Assembly: GCA_902765485.1 (NCBI GenBank)
Contig: CACWZZ010000016.1
Location: 41,991 to 105,990 of the forward strand
DNA: 64,000 bases
Direction: 5' to 3'
Source of the DNA: an uncultured Bacteroidales bacterium
Lineage (GTDB): Bacteria; Bacteroidota; Bacteroidia; Bacteroidales; Paludibacteraceae
Position numbers and translations under genes: made by a program. Shown here piece after piece: positions 2,060 through 59,968 of this stretch. How positions within the stretch are numbered: position 1 is the stretch's first letter; the number at the start of each line of letters is the position of its first letter. The notes below the pieces were generated by a model, which saw only the letters and a list, made by a program, of their open reading frames with translations, was not told the DNA's origin and did no database searches.

Positions 2060-2203
2060 GTTGACAGTTATTTAGGAAAAGTCAATCAGTACAACATCTG
2101 TCAAGCAATTTAGGATGGATGTCAACAAATTTAGTACAACTGTAAACTCTTTTAGGAAAGTGTAAACAGATTCCAGAAGAGTGACAAGTAATTTAGTTAA
2201 AAT
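2060..2203. repeat. seven phased ~19-23 bp iteron-like direct repeats (GTyAAC..TTTAGGAAA)
   Basis: Units start at 2060, 2081, 2100, 2121, 2142, 2162, 2181. Positions 2121-2203 recur at 30296-30378 with one mismatch. Confidence 0.8.
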
Positions 2204-2204
2204 A

Positions 2205-2500
2205 TGGCAAAACTGGCAAAACTGACATATAATTTTTTGTTATGACCGTTTTGACCTTTTTGACCGTTTCGCCCCAAACGGTCAATCCGGTCAATCCGGT
2301 CATGTTATTTTTTTGTATTGCACTTTCTGCACTTTTTGCACTTTCTATACTTTTTGACCATCAAAATGCAAATAGTGCAAATAGTGCAATGTCATTTTTT
2401 TGCCACTTTTGCCATTTCTGCCATGTCAAATTTTTTCTTCTTTTACCCCGAATCGGATTCGGGGGCTACTCAAATCGTTATATATTCTTGTATATTCTTA
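2205..2500. repeat. composite non-coding module of six tandem 9-mer word blocks plus hairpin (copy A)
   Basis: GGCAAAACT x2, GACCGTTTT x3, GGTCAATCC x2+, TGCACTTTC x3, TGCAAATAG x3, TGCCACTTT x3; hairpin at 2446-2464; inverted copy at 29967-30242. Confidence 0.85.
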
Positions 2501-2620
2501 ATCATCCGTTACCCATCGCCGACACTCTCTCCTGCCCCTGACCATCCTGTGCCTTGCCCCAAAAGAGCCGACAAATTTATGAAAAACGTAAGAAAACTTG
2601 CATATCTCACAAAAAAGTTG

Positions 2621-6715: not shown

Positions 6716-6737
6716 ATCTCTAAATATAAATTGTGTG

Positions 6738-6745
6738 CAAAGATA
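6738..6745 (-). promoter_or_regulatory. -7 promoter box (TATCTTTG on minus strand)
   Basis: TAnnTTTG match 23 nt upstream of the M49 peptidase start. Confidence 0.55.
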
Positions 6746-6754
6746 CAACAAATA

Positions 6755-6786
6755 ATTCAAAATTCAAAATTCAAAAGTTCAAAATT
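6755..6786. repeat. tandem 7-mer word array (ATTCAAA x3-4)
   Basis: Read directly; lies just upstream of the -7 box of the M49 peptidase gene. Confidence 0.7.
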
Positions 6787-6850
6787 AAGCAAAACGCAAA
6801 AAAAATCGCCCCTAAGAGCGATTTTTTTGCACTTCGTATGTCCTTCGTAC

Positions 6851-7831
6851 TTATTTTACGCGGGAACCTTGTACATTATACATGATTCCATTGTACATCA
6901 GATAGAGTTGTCCGTTGCGGATCATTTTGGAAGCCTCGCCTGAAGGGAAGGGGGTATTCTCCAGACCCGTGACCAGCATGTCGGGATGCAGGTCTTCCGC
7001 TCCGGTGATCTCGGTACTCGTTTCACCGATCCATCCGCATACCTGTTGCACGGCGGTATAGACTTTGACGAAATGAATAGCCGGCAGGAAAACGGGATTG
7101 CCGCTGTTATCCACCGCCCATCGGATGCAGAACTGACATCCGTCAGTCTTATTGGGATGGTTATCGGCATAGCCGTAGTCATAGGTATAGAGGACGAAGG
7201 AGTGCTGTCCGTTCTCGCCCTCATCCACGGCATTGGGAGCCAGAAGCGAGCCGGTGAAAGTGAGTTCATCGGGTGCCCAAAGGGGGAAATAGTCCTGCTG
7301 ATGAAAACTATTACGCGGCACAACGCCAGATCCTCCCCTGTTGTCGGTCCAAGGGATGTCTGCGAGCCCATCCGGGCGGGTATAAGTGACGGCATAGCGG
7401 TGGACGGTAGCAGGCGAGTTATACTCGCTTCCCGCCAGTTCGTACCACGGGTCATCGGGCAGTCCGTTCCCATTGGCGTCATAGCTGACCATGACGATTC
7501 CGGGTTCGGCAGCTCCCCCTTTGCGGGATGTGTCCTTGGCATAGGAGGCATAAGACGCATTGCCGGTGATGCGGAAGTCATAGTCGTTTAGCGAGTTGGT
7601 AACCGGATGATCAAACCCGAATACGATATAGCCACCCCACGCACCAAGACAGACCATCCCGCCGGCGTTATTAGCGAGAGCCGCTTCGGCTTTGGCAGCC
7701 ATCGTCTCGGGCGTATCGTCCGTTGTAGCAGCCGGCATCGCGTTGGTGAACTGCCCAGGCGCGGGCATATATTCATACACCCGCGCCAAATAGGGCGAAA
7801 CGGCCAATAAGATAGTTAGTAACACATGCAT
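6851..7831 (-). CDS. secreted/cell-surface protein of unknown function with a conserved C-terminal tail
   Basis: N-terminal hydrophobic signal; starts 3 nt after the giant upstream gene; C-terminus MIRNGQLYLMYNGIMYNVQGSRVK. Confidence 0.7.
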   Translation of the reverse strand: MHVLLTILLAVSPYLARVYEYMPAPGQFTNAMPAATTDDTPETMAAKAEAALANNAGGMVCLGAWGGYIVFGFDHPVTNSLNDYDFRITGNASYASYAKDTSRKGGAAEPGIVMVSYDANGNGLPDDPWYELAGSEYNSPATVHRYAVTYTRPDGLADIPWTDNRGGSGVVPRNSFHQQDYFPLWAPDELTFTGSLLAPNAVDEGENGQHSFVLYTYDYGYADNHPNKTDGCQFCIRWAVDNSGNPVFLPAIHFVKVYTAVQQVCGWIGETSTEITGAEDLHPDMLVTGLENTPFPSGEASKMIRNGQLYLMYNGIMYNVQGSRVK

Positions 7832-7834
7832 GGC

Positions 7835-10800
7835 TTATCGTATTACGCGGCCGTTGAGGTCAAACATCCGTTCTCCACGGAGGATGAAGATCTGTCCGTC
7901 AAGGAGGAGTTTAGTGGTGATTGGTGAATGGTCATTGACGACTTGCTCCAAGTCCGTCGCAGGGGACGGTCTGGTACCACCGAAGTTATCGAGACAGAAA
8001 TAGGTCGGCGTAGTAAATCCATAAGCGTCCGACTTGGTAGTGAAGAGTTCAAACTCCAGCCGCGTGATAGCGCCCAGCGAAGAGAGGTCGAACCATCTCC
8101 AGGTATTGAGAGCGAAATGCTCGTCGGCATTCTCGGAGCGGTAGTCCGCGAGATAGAAGACCACCTCACCTGTTTTCTCCGATCCGTTGTATCCCTTCGC
8201 GGTAACAGACATATAGTCGCCTTGCGCAAAAGCGTCGCTGGCATAGTCGCCGTTAAGAATAGCGTCAAGGGTATAGACGGTGTTGGTGATATAGAATCCG
8301 GTGATCGTTTGCGGCTCTGCACTATTGGTGAGCAGAATCGGATCCATATAACCGGCGAACCAAACGGACGGGGCGGAATAATACGCTACGGCGTAGTTAT
8401 TGCCTTCGTACGCGCCTCCCGCAGCCGAGCGGAACTGGTCAATGTTATAATTGCCGGTAGCCTCTGTCGATTGGTCGGAGCAGATGGCATAACCCGTATA
8501 AGCCTTGTATGCCTTGTTCGGCGTGTTGCCAAAGGCGTACGTGCCGCTATAGAGGTTCGTCTCGGTATTATCTACCCAAGCCTCATCCACATCCTTGTGT
8601 CCGTTCTCAGCGAGGGTGTATTCCTCGAAAGTAGCCGCAGCTGCTGCTTTCTCCACCCATACATGAGCAGAAACGATTGCTTGCTGACCGAAGCAGTCGG
8701 TGACGGTACAAATATACTCGGTTGTTTGGCTCGCTGTGAGCGCGAGAGTCGCCTCCGTGCCGATAACGGCATTGCTGAAAGCGGTTCGCCAAGCGTAAGT
8801 GTACGGTTTGGCTTGCTCGTATTCGGTAGCAAGGGACGCGGTGAGCGTGAAAGCGGCTTCGGCTGCTACGGTCTGTTTGCCAATCGGGTTCAGCACTACC
8901 GGACGAAGCGTCCACGCAGTAGTGAAAGCTGTTTCCTGATATGCCGCAGCGGCTTCTCCCAGCGGCGAGAACAAGAGGACATATGCCTTGTAGCCGGTTT
9001 CCTCACTCAGACCGGTAGCGGTAAAGGTCACTTCGCCGTCCTTGACAAGCGAAATCTCCGTCGTAGCAGCTGCCAGCGCCTCGATAGCAGGAGCATCACT
9101 CTCTGCCGGTAGCACAATCACTTTGGCGGTTCCGTAATTATCCGCTTTAATGACGATATCGGCTTTGGTGTCCTGCGTATTGGCGGTCGGATAGCCTTCA
9201 GCCATTACCGGCACACGGAAGAGGTCGGCATCATACTCGTACGCACCGATGGTAGGCGCAGCGGCACGGGTCTTGCCGGTGATATCAGCCGGAACAGAAG
9301 TCATCACTTCGGCTGTAAGGAGATGTCCATCATTAGTCTCCTTCGGGATGAGAAGCGTAGCGGAAGCGAACGTAACGGCTTCGTTGAGGTTGCCGTCCGT
9401 GTCGGTGGCACCCACTGCGGTCTTCCAGTCAGCAAAAGTGCTGACAGTCGCAGTCGGCATACCGAAAGTCGCTTCCGGCGTATAGAGGATGTTATGACGG
9501 TACGCGATATTGGCAATAGCTCCGGCGTTCTTATAGCGCACGGCGTAACCTTTGTTCGTAGCCTGGAAGATATTGTTCACGAATACCGAACCGGCAGCCG
9601 GAGCAGTTTCAATATAGTACGTGGACGAAGCTGTTCCTGCTGAGTTCATCACCATCGTATTATGGGCGAACAAAAGCTTCGGCATATTGCTGCTTGTGTT
9701 GATGCAATACGATGCATATTCGGAACCGTTCTGCACGTTCACTACATTGTTCACCACCTGCAACAGGGTGTTCTCCTTATCCTGATAGTTGTTCGGACGA
9801 ATGTAAATCGCCTTGATGCTTTGGTTATCGGCAGCTGTTCCGGAATAGAAAATATCATTCTCTGCGATAGTGGAAGAGCCACCGAGCAGGATCCAATCAA
9901 TAGCGTTTGCGCTGCTGGATTTAGCTTGTGCGCGGAATGTATTACCGATAATTTGCAGATTGCTGACCGCATCTCCGTAAACCATTTGTTTGCCCTGGTT
10001 GCGGATAGTATTGCGGCTGATAAGCATATTCTGCTGTAACGGATCCGCTGCGGCTTTGTGTCCGGTTACGTGGAGACCCATATAACCGCCCTCCAGCACG
10101 CTGTTGGTGAGCGCAAAATCATTATTGAAATTGTTCTCGCCTGCGTCCACGAAAAGGAGATCCAGACGAGCCGTATATTCCGTCTTGGTCTCAGCATAAA
10201 TGCGGCAGCTGTCAATCGTCACATGCGTAGCGGCGTTGCGTACAACAACCACTGCCGGGTTCTGGTTGGAAGTATAAGTGGAGGTGAAGGAAAGACCTTT
10301 GAGGGTCACATAGTCGGCACCATCAATGGTGAAGACACCCTTCTCAGAGCTCAGCGTGTTGTTGTATTGGTAAGTCACATCGTTGTAGTTGCCGGAAAGC
10401 GAACGGATAGTAATGGTGTTCGCCGAACCGGCTCCGTTAATCTGAGGAATAGTGACTTGCTCGGTGTACGTACCCGGTTCGATAGCTATCTCTACCGCGC
10501 CGTCCATACCAATCGTACTGATAGCCTTGAGTGCTGCGGTCAGCGTAGCGTAATCCGCCATGGCACTTGCGCCGACACGGTAGAAACCATGCGCACCGCT
10601 GACCACGTTGATAGAGACAGCGGCAGCACTTTGCGGAGCAATCTTCTGCTCACCCAGAACAACCTGATCCAGCGTGAGTGACACTACGTTACCCACCTCG
10701 GCTGCTGCATCCACAGAACCGACGAACCAGAAGTAATAAACGCCCTTCTCGTCCATGACATAACTGTCTGTAAACTCATTCGCGGTAGAGAAAGTGGCGG

Positions 10801-13800
10801 AATGGCCGGTTGCGAATATATGGCGGTCAATGAGCAGGTCCGAAACCGTCTGCTCAAAGCCGGTGATGGTAAGCGGAGTGCGGTCACCGGAGACATATAC
10901 AGCTGCTTGCATCAGGCGGAGGTCACCCGTTCCTTTGGTAGCCTCAGCCGGTGCCAGCGGAGTAACGAGCACCGAATCAACCGCAAGATTGGTCAACAAG
11001 TGCTGACGCACCTCTACTTCAAATCCGCTCTTTTGGCTCGTCGGCATCTTGACATATACGGTGATGGATCCGTCTTCGGCACGCGAGATGACACTCTCGT
11101 TCGCCTCGGGTTTGGAGTACATGCCGTATTTTTTATCCGAGGCTGCCTCGGCATCATAGGCGTTGGCATAGTAGATATGGAACGGATCGCCGGAGAGATA
11201 AGCGATATCGAAGTCCTTGAATACCAACTCTACGGCATAGCCTTCGGTAGCCGGCACGAAGGTGATATAGCCCTCGAAATTAGAACTGTAGTTCTCGTCT
11301 GCACCGCCATCGTCATAGAACATCAGACTGTTCTCTCCGATGGTAACGGTGCCGTTATCGCCGGCTTGGAGGTATCGCACGTTCTTCACGGTGCGAGCAC
11401 CTTCTGGGTCACCGGCTGCGACAGCCTGCGTCTCGCCGCTCAGGGTGACGCTTTTCAGGGCGGCATCGACATCGGTCTCTACCATGGCATCGGCTTTGAT
11501 ATCGGCGGCAAGCACAAATGCATTGCCATATTCAGCGAGTGCAAGCGGTGTCTCAAGCGTCAAGGCTACTTGAGATGCTGCCAGAGCCTGTGCCAATACG
11601 TTTTCGCCTTGCAACAGATAGAGGGTTTCGATATTTTCTTCCGTTCCCTTCAGGTCAACCGTCAAAGCATTGAGGTTCAGGGCATTGAGTGTGCCAATTG
11701 TCCGAATATCCAGATTGAGTAGTGCGGCTTTTTGCTCACCCGTCTGCACTAATTTGGTCGAAGCCTGAGCTACAGCAATCGTATCCACCTGCATGGCTTG
11801 CAACTTGTATTCCTTCACCGTTGCGTGCCAGCCGTTGCCGGTATAATAAGAAGACGTGGTGTTCGGGTTGAAGACAATCGTCAAAGCGCCATCCGCTGCC
11901 GTAGAACGAATCTGCGTCGGTTTCTTGCCGTTGGAGTCCAACTCCCATAGTTTGTCGCCGCTCGTACCCTCGCCCGCGTAAACAATATATTTCGCGCGCG
12001 TACTATACGAAGAAGAGGCATAATAGACATCGAAGTCGGTATAGTCAATCTGGATTACATGACCTTCGGTAGCGGGTTTGAAGATTACCGTCTGGTCGCA
12101 TTGCTCCGCCTGATATTTGGAATTATAGTCGCTGACCACGGTGTGGGTATATGCCCAATTGCCAAGGATGGTGAAAGTCTGCGAACCGCAAGCCTGAACA
12201 GCCTTGTTCTCGATTGTCAGTTCGCCGCTCTGGTCTCCGAAATCCGTAACGGACGTGCCGTTGGTAAAAGTTATGCTCGCAATAGTGACGTTCACTTTTT
12301 CGTCGTTCTGTGCTAATCCGTTGATGTCACACACCAGCCAGAGGTAGTTTTCTCCCTCGCGGAAAGCAATGTCAGCGCTCTTGGTAATAGTCACCGCGTC
12401 GCCTGTCACATTCGCTTCGCCGAAGAGGCGGGAAGTGCTAAAACTATTTTCCTTGGTGTAATAGAGTTTAGCCTTCGAGATCTGACCGTAAGTGCCGTTG
12501 GTGTTCAGCGCGAGCGAAGCCATGGTGAGAGCCGGTTCGGTCTCAGCGGTTGTGATTTTAATAGAAGCCACTTGGGCATTCTCCGTTCCGGCAGAAACGG
12601 TGCCAATGTTTTTAGTCAGATTCACTGTGCTGACGGTCATAGCCTGCGGCACAAACTCGCTAACCACAGCCTCCCAACCGTCGCGCAGGTTGGAGTCATA
12701 GGAGATATTATTCTTATGGGTAATCGTCAGTTTGCCATCCGCTGCCGTGCTCTTGAGGACAATCGCGGTAGTGGTACTTGCCTCGGCTTGCGAGAGTTGC
12801 CAGAGCAAATCTGCATCGTTCGTGGAGTTGCCGTTATAGACCTTGATATAATCCACATAGCCGGTCGAGTTGGCGGCATAATCCGTATAGAAGACATTGA
12901 TGCTGTTGAAGGTCAGTTTGACTTTGCTGCCCTCTGTAGCGGGAGTGAACACCACCTTGCCGTCAAAACCCTTAACGACCTTGCCGTCCTTGCCGCCTTC
13001 GTCAAAGAACTGCGTCTCGCCGGAAATCGTGTAAGTAGCATCCTCAGCCATGAGGTACATAGCCTGCACGGTCATCGTAACCGGCGTAGCCGGAGTGAAA
13101 GTCGAGAACCCTCCCGCTGTGCTGAAACCGGTTATATTTACCGCTGCAGTGGCATTAAACGCCGCAGTAGAAAGGATATTGCCGCCGAGCGAGAATGAAT
13201 TATTTCCATTGCTCAGCGCGTAGCCTTCCGACAAAGTATAGGTATAAATCCCTTCGTCCTCCGTGATTGTGCCGGCAATCTCGCCCAGACCAGTTACCGA
13301 AACACCTGTACCGGCGTAGAGTTTTAGTGTTGTGGGATCAATCACAGCGGAGTTGGAGCAGGTGAACGTGATGGTTTGCAGCTTATCAGGCAAAGAATAA
13401 CCGGATGTTGTGATAGTCATACCGCTCATTCCTACATTAGTCTTTCCTGCCCATATTTCGCCATCGACAAAAGTGTTGTCGCCCGCTGCGGACTCAACGG
13501 TCATGGTCTCTAAAAGCACCTCTTCCACCGTAGCTTTCCAATAAGACTCTTTCGGGCTCGGATCTTTCGAATACAAGCAAACGGACAGACAGCCGTCTGC
13601 TGTCCCCGAGATATAGGTCGGCAGCGGATTAACCGCACCATCGCCGGGGATATAGGCAATTTGATTCGCATTTTCCACAAAACTGCCGGTAGGATTTCCA
13701 CTGGTCGGATATGAAATACTCGTCACATCAAACTGACCGTTGTAAATACGCATGTACACATCATACGAAGCGCTGTACTTGGTCAGGTTCAGTTCCTCAA

Positions 13801-14032
13801 AGGTGATTTTGATCGAATAGCCCTCAGTAGCTGGTTGGAAGATCACCGTTGAGAAAGCGGATTGTGTGAAATGTGTGTCTGCTCCCTTGAAATCATAAAA
13901 GGTCAGCGGAGCGTCTTTGGATACTACTTTCGTTTCGTACCCATACTGCGGCATCAGGTAATCCTCTGCCATAGCTGTGCTGCCCAGCCATCCTATGACT
14001 AAGAGCAGCAAAAAGAAGTACTTTTTTTTCAT
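7835..14032 (-). CDS. giant (2065 aa) cell-surface protein: 4 CUB-like modules, parallel beta-helix region, Ig-like region, DUF4465-like C-terminal domain
   Basis: Signal peptide MKKKYFFLLLLVIGWLGSTAMA. Four recurrences of F-P-ATEG--I-I/L-F. Beta-helix-like N--I-N-G repeats. C-terminal YFCLDNFGG region, then a 22-aa tail. Confidence 0.85.
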   Translation of the reverse strand: MKKKYFFLLLLVIGWLGSTAMAEDYLMPQYGYETKVVSKDAPLTFYDFKGADTHFTQSAFSTVIFQPATEGYSIKITFEELNLTKYSASYDVYMRIYNGQFDVTSISYPTSGNPTGSFVENANQIAYIPGDGAVNPLPTYISGTADGCLSVCLYSKDPSPKESYWKATVEEVLLETMTVESAAGDNTFVDGEIWAGKTNVGMSGMTITTSGYSLPDKLQTITFTCSNSAVIDPTTLKLYAGTGVSVTGLGEIAGTITEDEGIYTYTLSEGYALSNGNNSFSLGGNILSTAAFNATAAVNITGFSTAGGFSTFTPATPVTMTVQAMYLMAEDATYTISGETQFFDEGGKDGKVVKGFDGKVVFTPATEGSKVKLTFNSINVFYTDYAANSTGYVDYIKVYNGNSTNDADLLWQLSQAEASTTTAIVLKSTAADGKLTITHKNNISYDSNLRDGWEAVVSEFVPQAMTVSTVNLTKNIGTVSAGTENAQVASIKITTAETEPALTMASLALNTNGTYGQISKAKLYYTKENSFSTSRLFGEANVTGDAVTITKSADIAFREGENYLWLVCDINGLAQNDEKVNVTIASITFTNGTSVTDFGDQSGELTIENKAVQACGSQTFTILGNWAYTHTVVSDYNSKYQAEQCDQTVIFKPATEGHVIQIDYTDFDVYYASSSYSTRAKYIVYAGEGTSGDKLWELDSNGKKPTQIRSTAADGALTIVFNPNTTSSYYTGNGWHATVKEYKLQAMQVDTIAVAQASTKLVQTGEQKAALLNLDIRTIGTLNALNLNALTVDLKGTEENIETLYLLQGENVLAQALAASQVALTLETPLALAEYGNAFVLAADIKADAMVETDVDAALKSVTLSGETQAVAAGDPEGARTVKNVRYLQAGDNGTVTIGENSLMFYDDGGADENYSSNFEGYITFVPATEGYAVELVFKDFDIAYLSGDPFHIYYANAYDAEAASDKKYGMYSKPEANESVISRAEDGSITVYVKMPTSQKSGFEVEVRQHLLTNLAVDSVLVTPLAPAEATKGTGDLRLMQAAVYVSGDRTPLTITGFEQTVSDLLIDRHIFATGHSATFSTANEFTDSYVMDEKGVYYFWFVGSVDAAAEVGNVVSLTLDQVVLGEQKIAPQSAAAVSINVVSGAHGFYRVGASAMADYATLTAALKAISTIGMDGAVEIAIEPGTYTEQVTIPQINGAGSANTITIRSLSGNYNDVTYQYNNTLSSEKGVFTIDGADYVTLKGLSFTSTYTSNQNPAVVVVRNAATHVTIDSCRIYAETKTEYTARLDLLFVDAGENNFNNDFALTNSVLEGGYMGLHVTGHKAAADPLQQNMLISRNTIRNQGKQMVYGDAVSNLQIIGNTFRAQAKSSSANAIDWILLGGSSTIAENDIFYSGTAADNQSIKAIYIRPNNYQDKENTLLQVVNNVVNVQNGSEYASYCINTSSNMPKLLFAHNTMVMNSAGTASSTYYIETAPAAGSVFVNNIFQATNKGYAVRYKNAGAIANIAYRHNILYTPEATFGMPTATVSTFADWKTAVGATDTDGNLNEAVTFASATLLIPKETNDGHLLTAEVMTSVPADITGKTRAAAPTIGAYEYDADLFRVPVMAEGYPTANTQDTKADIVIKADNYGTAKVIVLPAESDAPAIEALAAATTEISLVKDGEVTFTATGLSEETGYKAYVLLFSPLGEAAAAYQETAFTTAWTLRPVVLNPIGKQTVAAEAAFTLTASLATEYEQAKPYTYAWRTAFSNAVIGTEATLALTASQTTEYICTVTDCFGQQAIVSAHVWVEKAAAAATFEEYTLAENGHKDVDEAWVDNTETNLYSGTYAFGNTPNKAYKAYTGYAICSDQSTEATGNYNIDQFRSAAGGAYEGNNYAVAYYSAPSVWFAGYMDPILLTNSAEPQTITGFYITNTVYTLDAILNGDYASDAFAQGDYMSVTAKGYNGSEKTGEVVFYLADYRSENADEHFALNTWRWFDLSSLGAITRLEFELFTTKSDAYGFTTPTYFCLDNFGGTRPSPATDLEQVVNDHSPITTKLLLDGQIFILRGERMFDLNGRVIR

Positions 14033-14119
14033 TGTATATTTTAATTAATTAGTAATAAGGAATATACGCGCATAGGCAAGTGCACCGACTGAAAAGCCGA
14101 TGTACTGCATACAAAACAA

Positions 14120-14335
14120 TATAAACAATAGTGATTGCTTCATCCGGTTCGCACTCTATTCCGCGAGAGTGATATGAACAGGGGAAAGCGGCATGTCTTC
14201 TGACTTGTCTCGTCCGTTAACGCCTTCTCGCCGACGCATCGGCAATGGCATGTTGGTTAAGGGACTGCGATTGAGACTTACAGCAGCGGGTCTGTACAGG
14301 ATTTACACCTGTTTCCATCTTAGCTTATGCGCGCA
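14120..14335 (-). promoter_or_regulatory. cobalamin (B12) riboswitch
   Basis: Minus-strand RNA contains GGAAACAGGTGTAAATCCTGTACAGACCCGCTGCTGTAA ... GCCATTG ... GAAGGC ... AGTCAGAAGACATGCC (B12 box). Lies in the 5' leader of the 2065-aa gene; aptamer ends are approximate. Confidence 0.85.
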
Positions 14336-14389
14336 TTTAAGCGCCATAAGAACCGTTTTCCTTTAGGGCATCCGTGTGGAGGTTCGGAA

Positions 14390-15665: not shown

Positions 15666-15695
15666 TTGTTAAATTGTTAAACTGTTAAATTATTA
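15666..15695. repeat. tandem 8-mer word array (TTGTTAAA-like x3-4)
   Basis: Fills the spacer between the GT2 stop and the DUF3467-like start. Confidence 0.6.
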
Positions 15696-18050: not shown

Positions 18051-18060
18051 CAGCAAATTA

Positions 18061-18170
18061 TTCAATTATCGTGCCATAGGAATTCAATTATCGTGCCATA
18101 GGAATTCAATTATCGTGCCATAGGAATTCAATTATGGTGCCATAGGAATTCAATTATCATGCCATAGATA
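18061..18170 (+). repeat. 5 x 22-bp tandem repeat forming the whole aroC leader
   Basis: TTCAATTATCGTGCCATAGGAA repeated head-to-tail; copies 4 and 5 carry 1-3 substitutions; the last copy runs into the ATG. Confidence 0.9.
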
Positions 18171-19144
18171 TGAATGTATTCGGAGATAAATGGACATTTA
18201 CGAGCTTCGGCGAATCGCACGGAGCGGCAATAGGCGGCGTGCTGGACGGCGTTCCCGCAGGGCTGCATATTGATCTGGATCTGATCAACTACGAGTTAGA
18301 CCGCCGTGCAGCACGTAAACGACACGTAAACGACACGGAAACGACACGTAAACGAGACGTAAACGACACAGTAACGGAAGCAGCTTCTTACGGCACATCT
18401 ACCAGAGCTTTTCGTGAACCCGATGAGGTGGAATGGCTCTCCGGTGTCATGGATGGTGTCACTCTCGGCACTCCGATTGCTTTTATAATAAGAAACAAAG
18501 ATGCGCGGCCCGAAGACTACGAGTTTCTCAAACACTCGTACCGCGTCGGGCATGCCGATAAGACGTACGAACAGAAATACGGTATTCGTGACTACCGCGG
18601 AGGAGGCAGAGCCTCAGCCCGAGAGACCGCAGCAAGAGTGGTAGCCGGATGTATAGCAAAACAGCAACTGGCGGCTAAAGGAATCTCCATACAGGCTAAA
18701 CTCATTCAGGTAGGAGCAGAGACAGACCCCGCCAAATTCGCAGACACCATCGAGGCGTACCGGCAAGAAGGAGACTCTATCGGAGGCATCGTGGAATGCG
18801 TCATCGAAGGGCTTCCTGCCGGCACAGGTGAACCGATTTTCAATAAGTTACAAGCCGAACTCGCTTTTGCTATAATGTCCATCAATGCCTGCAAAGGATT
18901 CGAATACGGAACCGGTTTCGGCGGAGTGACGCAACCCGGTTCGGCTATCAACCATATCTCCGGCGGCATCGCAGGAGGAATCGCAGATGGTACTCCGGTC
19001 ACTTTCCGCTGCGTCTTCAAACCCACGCCTTCTACTCCCAAAGCAGGCGTAAAAGGAAGACACGACGCGTGTGTTGCCACTCGCGCCGTGCCTGTCGTGG
19101 AAGCGATGACCGCTATGGCTCTCGCTAACCTGGTTCTCTCTTAA
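18170..19144 (+). CDS. aroC: chorismate synthase (short form with a repeat-derived insertion)
   Basis: FGESHG, GIRDYRGGGRASARETAARV, GRHDACV motifs. Confidence 0.85.
   Translation: MNVFGDKWTFTSFGESHGAAIGGVLDGVPAGLHIDLDLINYELDRRAARKRHVNDTETTRKRDVNDTVTEAASYGTSTRAFREPDEVEWLSGVMDGVTLGTPIAFIIRNKDARPEDYEFLKHSYRVGHADKTYEQKYGIRDYRGGGRASARETAARVVAGCIAKQQLAAKGISIQAKLIQVGAETDPAKFADTIEAYRQEGDSIGGIVECVIEGLPAGTGEPIFNKLQAELAFAIMSINACKGFEYGTGFGGVTQPGSAINHISGGIAGGIADGTPVTFRCVFKPTPSTPKAGVKGRHDACVATRAVPVVEAMTAMALANLVLS
18311..18376 (+). repeat. 6 x 11-bp tandem repeat (ACACGTAAACG) in-frame in aroC
   Basis: 66 nt = 22 codons; encodes ARKRHVNDTETTRKRDVNDTVT after the conserved RR. Confidence 0.9.
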
Positions 19145-28083: not shown

Positions 28084-28123
28084 ATTGTTTGAAATAGTTT
28101 GATGTGTTTGCATAATTCGGGTG

Positions 28124-28131
28124 CAAAGGTA
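28124..28131 (-). promoter_or_regulatory. -7 promoter box (TACCTTTG on minus strand)
   Basis: Only recognisable promoter ahead of the eight-gene cluster 28083-19225. Confidence 0.55.
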
Positions 28132-28240
28132 CTACTTTTTTTTGAAATATACAAACACAAATTGCTGTTTTATTTGCACAAATTGCAGAAAAGTTTGCCT
28201 GATTTCCTGTAATTGCCGATTATTAAGAATCTTATTACAA

Positions 28241-29419: not shown

Positions 29420-29585
29420 ATTGTGCTGTATTTAGATTGTTTTTTAGCATTGGCGTTGGCATTAATGGGGTCCCCGACACAAGCCGAAGCCGTGGGCTGT
29501 TTGTGGTGGGGAGAGCGTAGCGTAAGGCGAGTTTCCATTGAGCGGCAGAGCCGCGAGTCGTAACGAGCCTTAACGTAAGCGAGTG

Positions 29586-29593
29586 CAAAGGTA
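29586..29593 (-). promoter_or_regulatory. -7 promoter box (TACCTTTG on minus strand)
   Basis: TAnnTTTG match ~165 nt upstream of the ATPase start (long leader). Confidence 0.5.
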
Positions 29594-29966
29594 CAACTTT
29601 TTTCTGAATTGCGCAATAGAGTGAGCAATTTTTATGTATTTTTGTGCAATTTAGTGTGCATTTTTGTTCCGATGGCTTATATCTTTCGAGTTCTAATTAC
29701 TTGATACTGTCTATAAATTGTGCCAATATACAGATTAGGACAGGACCATCACGGGACCATGGTCCGAGAACGATTTCAGAAAAGTACAATCAAAACAAAA
29801 GCGACGCGTATTCAGGCAACCTCCCAAATGTTTCCGATTATTAAGATATGGGCGTTATACCAAAGTCAGCCCAAAGGCAGCATAAGGTCTGCTGATAAAG
29901 GGGTATTTGAACCGACATTGGACCGAGATAGGAAGGTAATTGGTTCGGTAATGGATAACTAATCAC

Positions 29967-30242
29967 TAAGAATATACAAGAATAACTAACGGTTTATCCG
30001 CCAAACTTGGCGGATGCAATAAAAAAATAACATGGCAGAAATGGCAAAAGTGGCAAAAAAATGATATTGCACTATTTGCACTATTTGCACTTTGATGAGC
30101 GAAAGTGCAAAAAGTGCAGAAAGTGCAAGACAAAAAAAATATATGACCGGATTGACCGAATTGACCGTTTGGGGTGAAACGGTCAAAAAGGTCAAAACGG
30201 TCAGAAAAAAAATGAATGTCAGTTTTGCCAGTTTTGCCAGTC
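29967..30242. repeat. composite 9-mer word module, copy B (inverted relative to 2205-2500)
   Basis: Its reverse complement reproduces all six 9-mer blocks in the same order, with a different hairpin (29997-30014) at the homologous position. Confidence 0.85.
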
Positions 30243-30295
30243 AAAAATTATCCAAAATTGCCCAAAATTAGAATAATTCTGTTATCAGGAGCGCT

Positions 30296-30418
30296 GTCAA
30301 CAAATTTAGTACAACTGTAAACTCTTTTAGGAAAGTGTAAACAGATTCCAGAAAAGTGACAAGTAATTTAGTTAAAATAAGTAAAAAACTGTCAACACTA
30401 TTTAGGAAAAGTCAGTTG
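30296..30418. repeat. iteron-like ~20-bp repeat array, copy B (direct relative to 2121-2203)
   Basis: 82/83 identity to 2121-2203, plus a further unit sharing TATTTAGGAAAAGTCA with 2068-2083. Confidence 0.85.
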
Positions 30419-30419
30419 T

Positions 30420-30821
30420 TTACTTATACAATACAAATGTCATAGCCTCTTGTTCCGGCATAGCGGTTATCGTGATAGCTATCGAATTCTTCTCTGCATT
30501 ATAGATGCCGTGATAGATTTCCTCTCCGGCCATATTCGTACCGTTTGCAGCCTTGATACAGATATCTTTGCCCGTCATATCCCACACCAAAAGATCACGT
30601 TTGGTGGGCTCAGTTGCCGGCGGAACCAGACTTTCATAGGTACATTTGAAGTTGGTGTGAAACGTGAACTGGGTATAAGCTGTCTTCTCATTTTCGGTAA
30701 CGGTGCAGCGATAAGTGTGACCTGCGATCGGCTGTGTGGCAGGATCGGCCTTCTTCTCACACGAAGTGAAACCCATTGTTACAGCGCAAAGCGCCATCAT
30801 TGCTACTAAAAACTTTTTCAT
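30420..30821 (-). CDS. lipoprotein, unknown function (133 aa)
   Basis: Signal plus lipobox MGFTSC. Confidence 0.6.
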   Translation of the reverse strand: MKKFLVAMMALCAVTMGFTSCEKKADPATQPIAGHTYRCTVTENEKTAYTQFTFHTNFKCTYESLVPPATEPTKRDLLVWDMTGKDICIKAANGTNMAGEEIYHGIYNAEKNSIAITITAMPEQEAMTFVLYK

Positions 30822-30854
30822 AATGATTGTTGTTTTATAGAGTTAATAAATCGA

Positions 30855-31256
30855 TTATTCATTCGGATTTTTGAGATTCAAAGTCAACGGCTTGTTTTTC
30901 TCACCTGTCTTTACCTTGAGAGGTTCAAAAGCTAAGCAATCATCGTTGGCATCAAAAACAGCAAAGTAAACTGTGATCGTTTCGTCAGCACCCACACTGC
31001 TCGGTGCAAAATCATCCGGCGATTTGAGCTCGAAATGAGCTACGCCGGCTGCGTTGGTCTTGACGGGAGCGTCTTTGTAATTCTGCTTGTAATACCCACC
31101 TCCCATATCGCCGTGAGCTACTGCCTTATAAACCTCGACTCCAGCCTGAGTCTTGCCGTCCTTCATCACTGTGACATCTACAGTTGCTTCCGTCTTAAAG
31201 CAACTGGTCATTACTACGGCTACCAAAGCCGCCAAAAGAATTTGAAACTTTTTCAT
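30855..31256 (-). CDS. lipoprotein, unknown function (133 aa)
   Basis: MKKFQILLAALVAVVMTSC from the ATG at 31256; the longer ORF-track model runs over the promoter. Confidence 0.6.
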   Translation of the reverse strand: MKKFQILLAALVAVVMTSCFKTEATVDVTVMKDGKTQAGVEVYKAVAHGDMGGGYYKQNYKDAPVKTNAAGVAHFELKSPDDFAPSSVGADETITVYFAVFDANDDCLAFEPLKVKTGEKNKPLTLNLKNPNE

Positions 31257-31300
31257 ATCAATTAGTTTTTGAGTTAATAGATTTGTCCTAAATCCGAGTG

Positions 31301-31308
31301 CAAAGGTA
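31301..31308 (-). promoter_or_regulatory. -7 promoter box (TACCTTTG on minus strand)
   Basis: TAnnTTTG match 45 nt upstream of 31256. Confidence 0.55.
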
Positions 31309-31598
31309 CAACATTTTTTTGACATACACAAAAAAAATGTGCACTTCGCGAAAAAAGTACACAATTTTTTCAATATTAAGACGTTTTGTCCGATTATTTT
31401 ACCACTACCGGCTCGTATTTCGGTACAAGCGCCTTCATTACACTCCATCCGATCAGGTAAGTGTGTTCTGCTGATAGAAAGAACCAGCCTGCTCGGAGGT
31501 GAAGCAGGCAAGAAAAGGCGTTTTGCTATAGATTCTTGAAGATAAGGGGCATGGCTTCGGGGGCTAAGGGGTTGGTAGGAAGCCTAATCGCGATCTTT

Positions 31599-36257: not shown

Positions 36258-36275
36258 TCTTGTTTTTCATTAAAA

Positions 36276-36315
36276 GATTCGATATTTCGATAACTCGATT
36301 TCCCGATATATCGGA
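36276..36315. repeat. tandem 8-mer word array (NNNTCGAT x5) filling the eda-MFS spacer
   Basis: GATTCGAT ATTTCGAT AACTCGAT TTCCCGAT ATATCGGA. Confidence 0.8.
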
Positions 36316-36984
36316 TTATTTTTTACAATTAGCGATGATTTCAAAGCACTCTTTGCACTTTGCGGTTATGTAAGCCCAGTCGCCGGCTTTCACCTTGTCG
36401 CTCGGGAAGAGCTTGCTGCCCATGCCCACGCAGTAAACGCCTGCGGCGAACCATTTCTCCAGGTTCTCTTTCTCAGGAGCCACACCACCGGTAACCATGA
36501 TCTTTGACCATGGTATCGGAGCCATCAGACCTTTCACGAGGTTCGGTCCAACTACATCGCCCGGGAACACTTTCGTGAAGTCGCAACCAACCTCCTGAGC
36601 CGCACCGATCTCGCTCGGTGTGAGGCAGCCCGGACAGTAAGTCACGCAACGACGGTTGCAGACAACTGCGATATCTTTGTTGAACAGCGGACCAACTACG
36701 AAGTTAGCACCCAGTTGCAGATAGAGAGCAGCAGTCGGAGCATCTACAACGCTACCGATACCGAGTGCCAACTCCGGGCACTCTTTAGCCACCCACTTGC
36801 TCAACTCACCGAACACCTCGTGTGCGAAATCGCCGCGGTTGGTGAACTCGAAAGCGCGTACACCGCCCTCGTAGCAAGCCTTAATCACGTTCTTACAAAC
36901 TTCTACGTCCTTGTGATAGAACACAGGAACCATCGGTGCAGCGGCAATCTTCGCCATCACCTGAAATTTATCAAACTTTGCCAT
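36316..36984 (-). CDS. eda: KDPG / 4-hydroxy-2-oxoglutarate aldolase
   Basis: Eda-family length and motifs ([21 protein letters not shown]); pathway context. Confidence 0.85.
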
Positions 36985-37004
36985 AATTTTCCTTTCTTGT
37001 TAAA

Positions 37005-37045
37005 ACTTCGGTATATCGATTTATCGAAATATCGATATATCGGAT
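37005..37045. repeat. tandem 8-mer word array (TATCGANN x4-5) filling the kdgK-eda spacer
   Basis: TATCGATT TATCGAAA TATCGATA TATCGGAT. Confidence 0.8.
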
Positions 37046-38071
37046 TTATCTCTGAACACGACCATTCGCATTGCCTCCGGCAAGCGAGAGAACTTCGTCT
37101 TCAGAAACGAGGTTGTAGTCGCCGTTAATGGTGTGCTTCAGAGCCGAAGCAGCTACTGCGAACTCAAGAGCCGATGCCTGGTCGCCCGGATACTTGAGCA
37201 TACCGTGGATCAGACCGCCGGAGAACGAGTCACCACCACCTACGCGGTCGATGATCGGGTTGATCTCGTAACGCTTGGACTGGTAGAACTCCTTACCGTT
37301 GTAGATCATAGCCTTCCAGCCGTTGAAGGTAGCGCTGTAGCTCTCGCGCAGCGTCGAAACAACGTACTTGAAGCCGAACTCCTTCATCATCTGCTCGAAG
37401 ATGCCCTTGTAGCCCTCAGCGTTGGTCTCGCCGCCTTCTACATCTGCATCGGGCTTGAAACCGAGGCACAACTCTGCATCTTCCTCGTTGCCGATACAAA
37501 CATCCACATACTTCATCAACGGACGCATGATCGAGATAGCTTTCTCGCTGGTCCACAGTTTCTTACGGAAGTTCAGGTCAACGGAAACAGTTACACCGTG
37601 ACGTTTTGCAGCCTCGCAAGCCAATTTGGTGATCTCAGCAGCCTTGTCCGAGATAGCCGGAGTGATGCCGCTCCAGTGGAACCATGCTGCGCCTTCCATG
37701 ATCTTATCGAAGTCAAAGTCCTTTGGATCAGCCTCAGCGATAGCGCTGTGTGCACGGTCGTAAATCACTTTCGACGGACGCATCGAAGCACCGGTCTCAC
37801 AATAATACAGACCCACGCGGTCGCCGCCACGAACGATATAATCGTCTTTTACGCCATAACGACGCAGCGAGTTAACGGCAATCTGACCGATCTCGTGCTT
37901 CGGCAGTTTGGTTACCAGATAAGCCTCGTGGCCGTAGTTAGCGCACGAAATAGCCACGTTAGCCTCACCACCACCGGGAATAATTCTAAAGTGATCAGAC
38001 TGGATGAAACGGTCTTGTCCTTCAGGACTCAGGCGGAGCATAATCTCGCCCAACGTAATAATTTTAGCCAT
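37046..38071 (-). CDS. kdgK: 2-dehydro-3-deoxygluconokinase
   Basis: PfkB motifs GGGEANVA and VGGGDSFSGGLIHG. Confidence 0.85.
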   Translation of the reverse strand: MAKIITLGEIMLRLSPEGQDRFIQSDHFRIIPGGGEANVAISCANYGHEAYLVTKLPKHEIGQIAVNSLRRYGVKDDYIVRGGDRVGLYYCETGASMRPSKVIYDRAHSAIAEADPKDFDFDKIMEGAAWFHWSGITPAISDKAAEITKLACEAAKRHGVTVSVDLNFRKKLWTSEKAISIMRPLMKYVDVCIGNEEDAELCLGFKPDADVEGGETNAEGYKGIFEQMMKEFGFKYVVSTLRESYSATFNGWKAMIYNGKEFYQSKRYEINPIIDRVGGGDSFSGGLIHGMLKYPGDQASALEFAVAASALKHTINGDYNLVSEDEVLSLAGGNANGRVQR

Positions 38072-38173: not shown

Positions 38174-38204
38174 TCTCCGTCTATTAGCCCCGAATTTTAT
38201 TCGG
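38174..38204. repeat. REP-like hairpin element, copy 1 (contains the stop codon of the Y1 gene)
   Basis: CTCCGTCTATTAGC + CCCGAAT-TTT-ATTCGGG. Confidence 0.7.
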
Positions 38205-39231
38205 GTTTGTTCAAAGCCTCGCATATTTCCTCTGCCATTTTATTCATCGCCACACACTCGGCTCTGGTCACATGCGGCTTGTCCGGATCATGCTGCCACG
38301 GCGATAGTATCAACATCCTTCCCTCTGCGACCGCCTCAAACAATCCCTCTGCAGGTTTGTAATACTCGCCAAATCCATTCTCCGCGATATAAATAATGGT
38401 ATGTTTCTCGCGCAGCAACACCTCCAATACCTCTTTCTCTTTCGGACTAATGAACGGCGACACCATCACAGTCCCTTTACGAGCCGCCAGCACACATCCG
38501 TTCATATACTCGCGTAGCCGTGTCGCGTCTCCATGCTGCTCAGCATCTTCCACCCAAATCCTCCGCACATGTACCGGCGAGAACTTCTCTGCCTGCAAAA
38601 TGCCTATATTCCCAATTCCGCTATATTTCTGTCCCGCTATCTCTATATCTCGCTGCACTCTGAAATATCCCGGCATCAACCTTTTCGTTGCTAACCTCTG
38701 CGGGTTCATCTGCACATAGCGGATCATCGTTTGTAGTTGTCCCTTGTGTGACATTGGACGCACAAACGGGCGCTCCGTGAAGATCGGAAATGGGAGGCCT
38801 CCATTCCCTTCTCTCGCATTATTTGCCATTCCCTCTCCGTCCATTAGCCCCGAATTTAATTCGGGATAAATCAACGGAGAATATGCCCGTCCTATTTTCT
38901 TAACGCCCTGCCACAAACTGCGGATTACATTATTTATACTTTGTGTCATCGGCTTGGTGACATAGTATATTACATGCAAGTGATCGGGCATCAAACAATG
39001 CTGTATTACCTTTATCTCCGGATAGTAATGATTGATGCGTAATGCTTCTTCTGTTATCCGGTCCCCAAGTTCTGTCCTTTCCACCGCCGCTTGTTTCGGA
39101 TCATTCTCCGGAATGACAAGCCTCCCCAACAAAGCCTCTCTGCTTGGCACAACCAGCGTAACATGGTAAATGCCGACACCTCTCCATGCCGTTCCCATTT
39201 CTTGCCATTTCCATGTCTCCTGTTCTGCCAT
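38197..39231 (-). CDS. RayT/IS200-like Y1 (HUH) transposase domain fused to a DprA/SLOG-like C-terminal domain
   Basis: HUH motif PDHLHVIYY; Y-motif IRYVQMNPQR. C-terminus aligns by eye to the DprA core (GNIGILQ, VHVRR, GTVMVSPF, TIIYIAENGF, GRMLILSP). Confidence 0.65.
   Translation of the reverse strand: MAEQETWKWQEMGTAWRGVGIYHVTLVVPSREALLGRLVIPENDPKQAAVERTELGDRITEEALRINHYYPEIKVIQHCLMPDHLHVIYYVTKPMTQSINNVIRSLWQGVKKIGRAYSPLIYPELNSGLMDGEGMANNAREGNGGLPFPIFTERPFVRPMSHKGQLQTMIRYVQMNPQRLATKRLMPGYFRVQRDIEIAGQKYSGIGNIGILQAEKFSPVHVRRIWVEDAEQHGDATRLREYMNGCVLAARKGTVMVSPFISPKEKEVLEVLLREKHTIIYIAENGFGEYYKPAEGLFEAVAEGRMLILSPWQHDPDKPHVTRAECVAMNKMAEEICEALNKPE
38835..38865. repeat. REP-like hairpin element, copy 2 (in-frame inside the Y1 gene)
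   Basis: CTCCGTCCATTAGC + CCCGAAT-TTA-ATTCGGG; encodes YPELNSGLMDGE. Confidence 0.7.
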
Positions 39232-39380: not shown

Positions 39381-39455
39381 CGGCTTACGAGCGGCATACG
39401 AGACGGATACGAGACGATAACTATTAGCGATAACTTAGCGGTCTATCAGCCACTC
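39381..39455. repeat. degenerate 11-bp periodic array
   Basis: GGCTTACGAGC GGCATACGAGA CGGATACGAGA CGATAACTATT AGCGATAACTT AGCGGTCTATC. Confidence 0.55.
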
Positions 39456-46476: not shown

Positions 46477-46547
46477 AATTGTTAGATTTTATTATGTTAA
46501 ATGATGTTGTTTTTCGCTCCTTTATGCCTTGCATAAAATTACGGCTG

Positions 46548-46555
46548 CAAAGGTA
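46548..46555 (-). promoter_or_regulatory. -7 promoter box (TACCTTTG on minus strand)
   Basis: TAnnTTTG match 72 nt upstream of uxaC. Confidence 0.55.
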
Positions 46556-46609
46556 CTACTTTTTTTGCAAACAAATGTGGAAAAATTGACATAAAAATTA
46601 CACATTCTC

Positions 46610-50645: not shown

Positions 50646-50685
50646 TCCTAATTTACTAATTCTCTAATTCACTAACTCTCTGACT
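50646..50685. repeat. tandem 8-mer word array (NNCTAATT x4-5)
   Basis: TCCTAATT TACTAATT CTCTAATT CACTAACT CTCTGACT; overlaps the last codons (ESES*) of the DUF2130-like gene. Confidence 0.75.
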
Positions 50686-55887: not shown

Positions 55888-55922
55888 AGAATATATTTTT
55901 TAGTTATTTTCAAAATCCGCCA

Positions 55923-55930
55923 CAAAGGTA
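55923..55930 (-). promoter_or_regulatory. -7 promoter box (TACCTTTG on minus strand)
   Basis: 36 nt upstream of 55887. Confidence 0.55.
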
Positions 55931-56003
55931 CTGCTTTTTTTTAATATACACAATATTTTCAAGAAAATTTTACTAATTTCTTGCGTATTCCAAAAAAATG
56001 TAG

Positions 56004-56011
56004 TACCTTTG
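56004..56011 (+). promoter_or_regulatory. -7 promoter box (TACCTTTG)
   Basis: 21 nt upstream of the tRNA 5' end. Confidence 0.55.
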
Positions 56012-56031
56012 CACCCGATTTCCTGGTGAAA

Positions 56032-58759: not shown

Positions 58760-58818
58760 ATCTTCAAATCCTCAAATCCTCAAATCATCAAATCCTCAAA
58801 TCATCAAATCATCAAATC
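58755..58818. repeat. 8 x 8-bp tandem word array (TCAAATCN)
   Basis: Starts inside the TtcA-like stop codon region and ends 5 nt before the next ATG. Confidence 0.9.
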
Positions 58819-59905: not shown

Positions 59906-59940
59906 AGTATTTATTAACTTTCAACTAGACGACTTCTTTC

Positions 59941-59968
59941 AACTTTCAACTTTCAACTTTCAACTCTC
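59941..59968. repeat. 4 x 7-bp tandem word array (AACTTTC), plus an isolated copy at 59916-59922
   Basis: Contains the stop and last codons (VES*) of the NlpC/P60 gene; lies upstream of the Sir2 start. Confidence 0.85.

Follow-up and report, generated by a model that had tools for sequence, protein, structure and literature searches.

A dispersed mosaic repeat of nonamer palindromes at intergenic sites in ruminant-gut Paludibacteraceae

Introduction

Two intergenic loci (A and B) of an uncultured Bacteroidales bacterium of the Paludibacteraceae each carry a module of tandem 9-nucleotide repeats (9-mers) and a block of 21-bp iterons. The 9-mer module of locus B is inverted relative to that of locus A, and the iteron block has the same orientation at both. 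The loci are 27.5 kb apart in a 64,000-nucleotide stretch of contig CACWZZ010000016.1 (assembly GCA_902765485.1, positions 41,991 to 105,990), referred to here as the window. Positions given without a contig are window positions. An initial annotation treated the two loci as a pair that brackets core genes and could support a large chromosomal inversion. The question addressed here is what kind of element gives rise to this arrangement. The genome holds at least 14 copies of a dispersed, mosaic repeat that lies between genes. Loci A and B are two of these copies, and their arrangement is one of several that the modules of the repeat adopt.

Results

Architecture of the repeat family

The assembly containing the window (G000) consists of 41 contigs, totals 2.1 Mb, and is 83% complete; the number of copies counted in it is a lower bound. 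Each copy contains one to three palindromes of 60-70 bp, and each arm is composed of three tandem 9-mers. The 9-mer unit is a 5-6-bp core starting with TG, followed by a T-rich spacer. The main cores are TGACC (module B), TGCAC (module C), and TGGCA/TGCCA (module A). A constant linker of TGTCA and a T-run follows every palindrome. The remaining modules are one small hairpin resembling repetitive extragenic palindromic (REP) sequences, which belongs to at least three independent families, and a tail with ~10-bp phasing. Upstream there may also be the 21-bp iterons, which occur in both orientations, and a spacer of the TTTTGG type. Read as at locus A, the order is iterons, A arm, B, C, A' arm, small hairpin, and tail. 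Coordinates for both loci are given in Table 1.

The combinations found in G000 include B alone, B with A', B with C, and A, B, C, and A' together. Module B is present in 13 of the 14 copies; any of C, A', A, the hairpin, and the iterons may be lacking. The A arm consists of two to three units of TGGCAAAAC. A and A' are the arms of one palindrome, which is found unsplit at C14:29760-29960 in G000, so at loci A and B modules B and C are nested in its loop. The internal order is identical in all five copies that have both arms (window A and B, L077, L081, and L120; L-numbered loci are related stretches from other metagenome-assembled genomes, or MAGs). Folded as a single strand, the whole element forms a Y shape with an energy of about -99 kcal/mol and a z-score of about -12 (-98.9 kcal/mol and -11.8 for locus A).

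Palindromic modules with three units in each arm are a feature of period 9 only: G000 has 17 and a set of 56 related loci has 62, whereas periods 7, 8, 10, and 11 give 0-2. By simple probability, about 0.1 matches per 2.1-Mb genome are expected for three occurrences of a 6-mer at a single set spacing, and the periodic arrays of loci A and B are therefore far above chance. A comparison was made of 39 distinct modules with five cores (TGCAC, TGACC, TGAGA, TGGCA, and TGTCA), in which the pairing of the cores is built into the detection. Outer and middle units each have a mismatch at position 7 in 31 of 39 cases, and inner units are paired there in 31 of 39. This pattern indicates that the palindromes are deliberately imperfect and carry a periodic defect. 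Diverged variants (L096 and L107) keep the core and have changed spacers.

The 6-nucleotide loop of the B palindrome is inverted (GGGGCG, not CGCCCC) at C17:23704-23764 in G000 and in L120. This inverted loop is a footprint of recombination between the two B arms, and the variant at C17 is common to the orthologue in G057 (RGIG4295), a genome about 94% identical to the window genome.

Comparison of loci A and B

Window positions 2205-2522 and 29945-30239 are inverted copies that align in four blocks of 80-93% identity. The iteron core (2121-2203 and 30296-30378) is in direct orientation and identical at 82 of 83 positions. These results bear out the description in the initial annotation of an inverted 9-mer module, of same-orientation iterons with one mismatch in 83, and of substitutions and indels in the 9-mer module. 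The modules share 267 matches over 305-325 nucleotides, and the indels are at the hairpin and in the loop of the TGCAC module. The spacer between the 9-mer module and the iterons of locus B, given there as 53 nucleotides, is also present (30241-30295).

The arrangement cannot be derived from one duplication or one inversion, as had been proposed, and its parts are separable. They are independent repeats, because other genomic copies combine 9-mer modules, iterons, and hairpins differently; the view of A and B as a special pair is thereby set aside. The opposite relative orientation of the iterons at the two loci would reflect independent assembly of modules, with no single rearrangement linking them.

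The iterons of locus A begin directly after the stop codon of a BspA-type leucine-rich repeat (LRR) gene (1210-2058). The iteron block has three copies in G000, plus fragments, in both relative orientations. Besides locus A, the copies are at 30296-30418 and at C2:2256-2376; L104 has a longer version. Fragments of the block are found upstream of three further copies of the element, in the opposite orientation.

The small hairpins differ at the equivalent position, with CCCCGAATCGGATTCGGGG (2446-2464) at locus A and ATCCGCCAAACTTGGCGGAT (29996-30015) at locus B. They belong to two families, hpA (CCCGAAT..ATTCGGG), which has 11 copies in G000, and hpB (ATCCGCCAAnnTTGGCGGAT), which has 16 copies that are mostly outside the mosaic elements. 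A third type, hpC (GAACGCC..GGCGTT), occupies the hairpin slot in other copies, and some copies have no hairpin. The earlier observation of unrelated hairpins at the same position is correct, but the structural requirement drawn from it does not hold: three hairpin types or none are found across copies and orthologues, which indicates turnover of the slot and not compensatory change under a structural requirement.

Distribution

A scan with the C-module pattern against one genome per prokaryotic species returned 56 stretches, all from MAGs of gut or rumen origin that carry the label Paludibacteraceae or uncultured Bacteroidales. These 56 related loci follow the same grammar with further cores and other module orders. 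Within the genus, only 8 of 61 genomes have C arms, and one of these has 26. The family is restricted to Paludibacteraceae of the ruminant gut and is patchily distributed among them.

The modules had no match among viral contigs or in phage and plasmid collections. A search of Rfam at gathering and E-value thresholds returned nothing but a cobalamin riboswitch at another place in the window and miRNA-like hairpin noise below threshold. Full-text literature on mosaic elements or miniature inverted-repeat transposable elements (MITEs) in Bacteroidetes yielded REP reviews and Porphyromonas MITE papers, none of which matched the architecture. No description was found, in Rfam or in this literature, of a layout that combines arms of three 9-mers, a mismatch recurring with the period, an invariant linker, palindromes nested in one another, and a highly variable slot for a hairpin. 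The basic plan of the repeat, mirrored arms of three 9-base words each, has apparently not been described before.

Orthologous sites

Window positions 2205-38146 are collinear with one contig of G057, all on one strand, so the segment between loci A and B has the window's orientation in G057, as it does in a 68-kb contig of a second assembly, ERZ27280073. The inversion of the 27.5-kb segment that the initial annotation proposed was thus seen in neither assembly. Nor do the inverted copies bracket only core genes, since positions 6665-14388 are absent from G057. This region is a unit led by a B12 riboswitch that encodes a 2065-amino-acid surface protein.

The comparison of the two loci in relatives that had been suggested found the flanks kept and elements at the orthologous sites, but with different modules. 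All five loci whose two flanks lie next to each other in a relative carry an element there as well. At locus A, the modules are A-B-C-A'-hpA in G000, A-B-C-A'-hpB in G057 (L081), and iterons-A-B-C-hpC in G058 (L104; RUG13776, about 90% identical to the window genome). At locus B, they are A-B-C-A'-hpB, B-A'-hpA, and B-C-hpC, respectively. Locus C25 has B-C-hpC in G000, spacer-A-B-A' with a partial hpC in G057, and B-A'-hpB in G058. Locus C26 has B-A'-hpA in G000 and C-hpC in G057. At locus C8, module B is present in G000 and absent from G057, where only a TCATGTCA stub remains. Sites are retained and modules differ, so the sites are old and their contents young: copies have kept their positions through speciation, and the set of modules in them changes fast. 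The tail of locus A is locus-specific and vertically inherited, being near-identical in L081 and L104.

An element also lies between a DUF3987 gene and a 124-amino-acid gene in at least eight further species, with a C module where G000 has B. The arms do not vary even between species in which the proteins encoded by the flanking genes are only 56-71% identical. The trio of DUF3987 gene, antisense mosaic element, and 124-amino-acid gene recurs in many species in two paralogous versions (C1:47432-49266 in G000; L074, L082, L085, L094, L112, L115, L116, and L122). The 124-amino-acid gene starts 20-46 nucleotides from the element and has two paralogues, only one of which has a nonamer module beside it. 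Its product matches no Pfam family.

Copies of the element coincide with places of gene-cassette difference between close relatives. The genes to the left of locus A are different in each of three relatives. Beside locus B, a 1.6-kb cassette with an AAA_14/DUF4143 ATPase gene and its promoter is absent from two close relatives. The cassette is bounded by a 13-bp direct repeat, CCGATTATTAAGA, at 28216-28228 and 29834-29846; similar AATCTTAAnAATCGG motifs are present at the far end of other copies. On the other side, positions 30242-31476 (1.3 kb: the iterons, a 133-amino-acid gene, and a 218-amino-acid DUF4198-like gene) are absent from G057 and G058, where the hairpin CCTGCTTCACCTCCGAGCAGG is immediately followed by the B module. 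Other strains have the 133-amino-acid gene and iterons behind a different LRR gene, with an IS3-like element in place of the hairpin and tail. An IS3-like element (end TGTGTCTTGTCCTGA; first open reading frame beginning MDKRLKKFTIADRLAILHEYE) is inserted in the T-rich linkers of relatives' elements (L053/L055 after 4402/3954, L088, and L120). Short-read contigs commonly break at the elements. Their position at gene-content breakpoints and contig breaks means that they matter for MAG assembly quality and for accessory-gene movement, here in an abundant, uncultured rumen lineage.

RAYT-like genes

A gene for a Y1/HUH transposase resembling REP-associated tyrosine transposases (RAYTs), fused to a DprA-like domain, is present in the window (38197-39231) and encodes 344 amino acids. 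One hpA-type hairpin lies in frame within the gene and a second at the 3' end. G000 has three such paralogues, the other two at C18:40639-41718 and C31:5419-6423. Each paralogue has an in-frame CCCGAAT..ATTCGGG hairpin and is flanked by other small palindromes. Six of the 11 hpA hairpins are inside or just after these three genes.

The protein matches NCBIfam REP_Tyr_transpos with E = 6e-4, below the family cut-off, and a Pfam search returned no match. The best fold match to its AlphaFold model (pLDDT 76.8) is 4er8_A, a RAYT bound to a REP hairpin, followed by the TnpA proteins of IS200/IS608/ISDra2; the C-terminal half matches DprA. The family has more than 3000 unannotated relatives. The RAYT-like/DprA-like protein is a candidate mobilising enzyme for the hairpin modules, and the elements offer a natural set of hairpin substrates for an unstudied fusion protein.

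The gene occurs in 6 of 8 genomes with C arms and 25 of 53 without, a post hoc comparison of non-independent genomes. A 35-codon remnant of a RAYT-like gene (YAQMNPQRLATKKLMPGFF motif region; C24:4542-4646 in G000) abuts the left end of copy C24. Nonamer modules that bear a gene, with inverted arms around a long loop, were not found in G000.

Other short repeats

G000 contains 376 clusters of 7-, 8-, 9-, or 11-mer tandem repeats with at least three copies, where about 0.1 per period is expected by chance. Most of these clusters immediately precede a start codon or separate genes of like orientation; some are within genes. Examples in the window are at 6754-6776, 15667-15689, 18060-18191, 18301-18376, 36273-36317, 37002-37046, 39386-39413, 50648-50669, 58764-58818, and 59936-59965. 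The only PF05635 (four-helix-bundle) gene and one PF13366 (GxxExxY nuclease) gene are each inside an intercistronic direct tandem array, with the same array on both sides (C13:109779-110096 and C4:15974-16318 in G000). The units of these arrays differ from the nonamers.

Repeat families D2/D3 and I7-I12 are present at 2598-2629, 28114-28165, 29580-29616, 31291-31342, 46538-46589, and 55913-56021. Most copies contain a TAnnTTTG motif (GTTGTACCTTTGC and similar). These are probably a shared Bacteroidota promoter consensus and not mobile repeats.

Table 1. Features of loci A and B and the RAYT-like gene in the window.
Feature	Position	Strand	Description
Locus A iteron block	2060-2203	+	seven ~21-bp units, TGTMAAC-N4-TTTAGGA-N3
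Locus A left arm of split A module	2205-2227	+	TGGCAAAAC x2 + TGACA; pairs with 2401-2423
Locus A B module	2243-2302	+	(TGACCnTTT)x3, 6-nt loop, (nnnCGGTCA)x3, then linker TGTTATTTTTTTG
Locus A C module	2319-2388	+	(TGCACTTTy)x3, loop, (AATAGTGCA)x3, then linker TGTCATTTTTTT
Locus A A' (right arm of split A module)	2401-2423	+	(TGCCAyTTy)x3; outer stem of Y-shaped fold
Locus A small hairpin hpA	2446-2464	+	CCCCGAATCGGATTCGGGG, REP-like unit
Locus A tail	2472-2525	+	~10-bp phasing, CGTTATATATTCTTGTATATTCTTAATCATCCGTTACCCATCGCCGAC
Locus B tail and distal tail	29860-29995	-	common to G057 orthologue
Locus B small hairpin hpB	29996-30015	-	ATCCGCCAAnnTTGGCGGAT, REP-like unit
Locus B A' arm	30033-30055	-	
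Locus B C module	30068-30127	-	
Locus B B module	30144-30203	-	
Locus B A arm	30218-30240	-	
Locus B spacer module	30241-30295	-	TTTTGGGCAATTTTGGATAA type; recurs beside other copies in relatives (L098, L097, L099)
Locus B iteron block	30296-30418	+	abuts stop codon of 133-aa gene (30420-30821, minus strand)
Inverted block 1	2234-2345 / 30101-30212		112 nt, 93%
Inverted block 2	2352-2435 / 30021-30104		84 nt, 90%
Inverted block 3	2472-2522 / 29945-29995		51 nt, 80%
Inverted block 4	2205-2238 / 30206-30239		34 nt, 91%
Direct repeat	2112-2212 / 30287-30387		
RAYT-like Y1/HUH transposase gene	38197-39231	-	fused to DprA-like domain

Discussion

Origin and role of the element

The element is probably a mosaic repeat like REPs and bacterial interspersed mosaic elements (BIMEs), resident at fixed intergenic sites and remodelled by exchange between copies. 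Modules would be exchanged by gene conversion or recombination at the shared linkers, and palindromes may also be lost through hairpin-mediated deletion. Additionally or instead, a hairpin-specific HUH enzyme may move the modules. Gene conversion through shared linkers and hairpin-mediated deletion suffice for the observations; movement by a transposase is something we infer. The repeat would then be selfish or near-neutral hairpin DNA, as are the REP/BIME clusters of E. coli or the dRS3 clusters of Neisseria intergenic mosaic elements (NIMEs). Recombination hot spots and strong hairpins in transcripts would be incidental effects, and the repeat may act as a hot spot for the rearrangement of neighbouring accessory genes.

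Several observations weigh against a mobile, REP-like repeat. The hpA hairpin is the only module to which the RAYT-like genes are tied, no nonamer module flanks them, and the remaining links between enzyme and palindromes (the C24 remnant and the co-occurrence within the genus) are weak. No empty site or target-site duplication was found at the five syntenic loci in the two close relatives, and no insertion of a module into a naive site was caught; the genus-wide scoring of empty sites covered 7 candidates per genome, with most species too diverged. The GTAG/CGTC tag typical of REPs is missing. The invariance of the arms and the retention of an element at five of five syntenic sites could instead reflect selection for a host function. 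In addition, 12 of the 14 copies in G000 follow the 3' end of a gene in the orientation of that gene, which fits a role at the RNA level.

In such a role, the modules would act in the upstream mRNA as stacked terminators, 3'-end stabilisers, or processing sites, and selection would keep the sites. This explanation is considered unlikely, although several observations are in keeping with it. Besides the gene-end bias, TGTCA and a T-run follow every palindrome, the folding energy is strong, and elements are kept at the five syntenic loci and at the DUF3987/124-amino-acid locus in many species. For the TGCAC modules, folding favours one strand by 4.7 kcal/mol in 36 of 38 variants, as G-U pairs on that strand take the place of C-A mismatches. 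The better-folding strand, however, is the one opposite to the co-oriented gene, and across species 16 elements are co-oriented and 12 anti-oriented. A terminator scan calls no module: the T-run starts 5 nucleotides past the stem, and the GC-rich stem with an immediate U-run of an intrinsic terminator was not found at the modules. Module content is also freely swapped, B can be absent, only 8 of 61 genomes in the genus carry the family, and Rfam gives no match. Protein-binding arrays, a reading we hold to be less probable still, would explain the strict 9-bp period and the invariant cores with varying spacers (L096 and L107 included) as three direct and three inverted sites bound cooperatively by a TGNNN-recognising nucleoid-associated, partition-like, or regulatory protein. 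Mismatches in the spacers are expected of such sites and not of a selected helix. At least five unrelated cores share one layout side by side, however, and would require several specificities; the arms are complementary in every case, though protein binding would not require it; no gene is consistently adjacent; and the family is patchy within the genus. In favour of a host role as RNA hairpins or protein-binding arrays are the orientation bias in G000, the retention of sites, and the invariance of the arms. Against it are the mixed orientation across species, the free swapping of modules, and the patchy distribution.

Two further explanations fare much worse. Approximately 300 bp of inverted homology at 80-93% identity is enough for RecA-mediated inversion of the 27.5-kb segment, with A and B as crossover sites, and inversion between arms does occur on a small scale (the flipped B loop of C17 and L120). 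Reversible inversion is nevertheless very improbable. The orientation is the same in the window, the 68-kb contig of ERZ27280073, and G057; the 14 copies are in both orientations, so that the A/B pair is nothing special; and no recombinase gene is beside either locus. An iteron-type replication origin, or the remnant of an integrated plasmid or phage, is scarcely credible. Tandem 21-bp iterons do lie beside AT-rich, repeat-rich DNA, but they have no adjacent rep, par, or phage gene. The three chromosomal copies of the iteron block and its fragments are in both orientations, which is not the one set of iterons per replicon, beside a rep gene, of such an origin, and no plasmid, phage, or viral contig matches. 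A false lead is thus removed, loci A and B being in all likelihood neither a duplicated origin nor an inversion switch.

A bolder form of the REP-like explanation is also conceivable. The nonamer-phased palindromes might be a new class of single-strand hairpin substrate that is moved or copied module by module, possibly by RAYT-like/DprA-like fusions, and that turns fixed intergenic sites in rumen Paludibacteraceae into hot spots of cassette exchange. This is a speculative proposal to which we give slightly less credence than to the RNA-level role and slightly more than to the protein-binding arrays. If true, these hot spots would swap accessory genes such as the AAA_14 ATPase, small lipoprotein-like genes, and BspA proteins.

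Comparison with known systems

The element was compared with other classes of intergenic repeat. As a MITE it was rejected: the composite ends differ (an iteron or GGTATATAA end and a tail), the five syntenic loci show no target-site duplication or empty site, and no autonomous transposase-bearing element between the same ends was found in G000 or in viral, phage, or plasmid collections. Invertons consist of inverted repeats around a promoter, with both orientations present in the population. Here the A and A' arms flank B and C, and the five copies with both arms have one internal order. No TAnnTTTG promoter is present between these arms, and one weak TTTG/TAATTTTG candidate was found in the locus B spacer only.

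Intergenic heptamer arrays have been described with the units GGGAATC in Xanthomonas and GGGGAYT in Nostoc (PMC4692102). Like these, the element contains short tandem units (6-9 nucleotides) enriched between co-oriented genes. The heptamer arrays are G-rich, quadruplex-forming, and mostly simple, with a preference for four units (PMC4692102), whereas the units here are T-rich, number exactly three per arm, and show inverted pairing at period 9 only.

In NIMEs, RS units are separated by dRS3/NTS repeats, and the repeat flanks a small GIY-YIG gene for the nuclease Ssn (PMC11893778). The likeness to the present element lies in variable units joined by a constant short junction, in arrays around variable genes, and in genome plasticity. 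The junction here, TGTCA and a T-run, is unlike that of NIMEs in being non-palindromic. No small GIY-YIG (Ssn-like) gene was found in G000 at its 83% completeness; the sole GIY-YIG match is in a 615-amino-acid frame that is UvrC-like by size only.

REP/BIME sequences of E. coli, Pseudomonas, and Stenotrophomonas are imperfect extragenic palindromes of 20-40 bp with GTAG or CGTC at one end and an associated RAYT (PMC3733652). The hpA and hpB hairpins fit this size class, and the nonamer palindromes, at 60-70 bp, exceed it. The element departs from REP/BIME in having three tandem 9-mers per arm and not single palindromes, several unrelated cores in one layout, and a low copy number of about 14 per genome. 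By inspection, the ends of hpA, hpB, hpC, and the B, C, and A modules have no GTAG or CGTC. The RAYT-like protein has a DprA-like C-terminal domain and is unlinked to the nonamer modules. The shared features are dispersed extragenic imperfect palindromes clustered with short motifs in variable mosaic order, conserved mismatches within the stem, and small hairpins that are also found inside genes. As insertion sequences target REPs, an IS3-like element has inserted in the arrays of relatives. A possible counterpart of the REPtron, a RAYT gene flanked by members of the repeat family, is the Y1/HUH RAYT-like gene with hpA hairpins inside it and at its 3' end.

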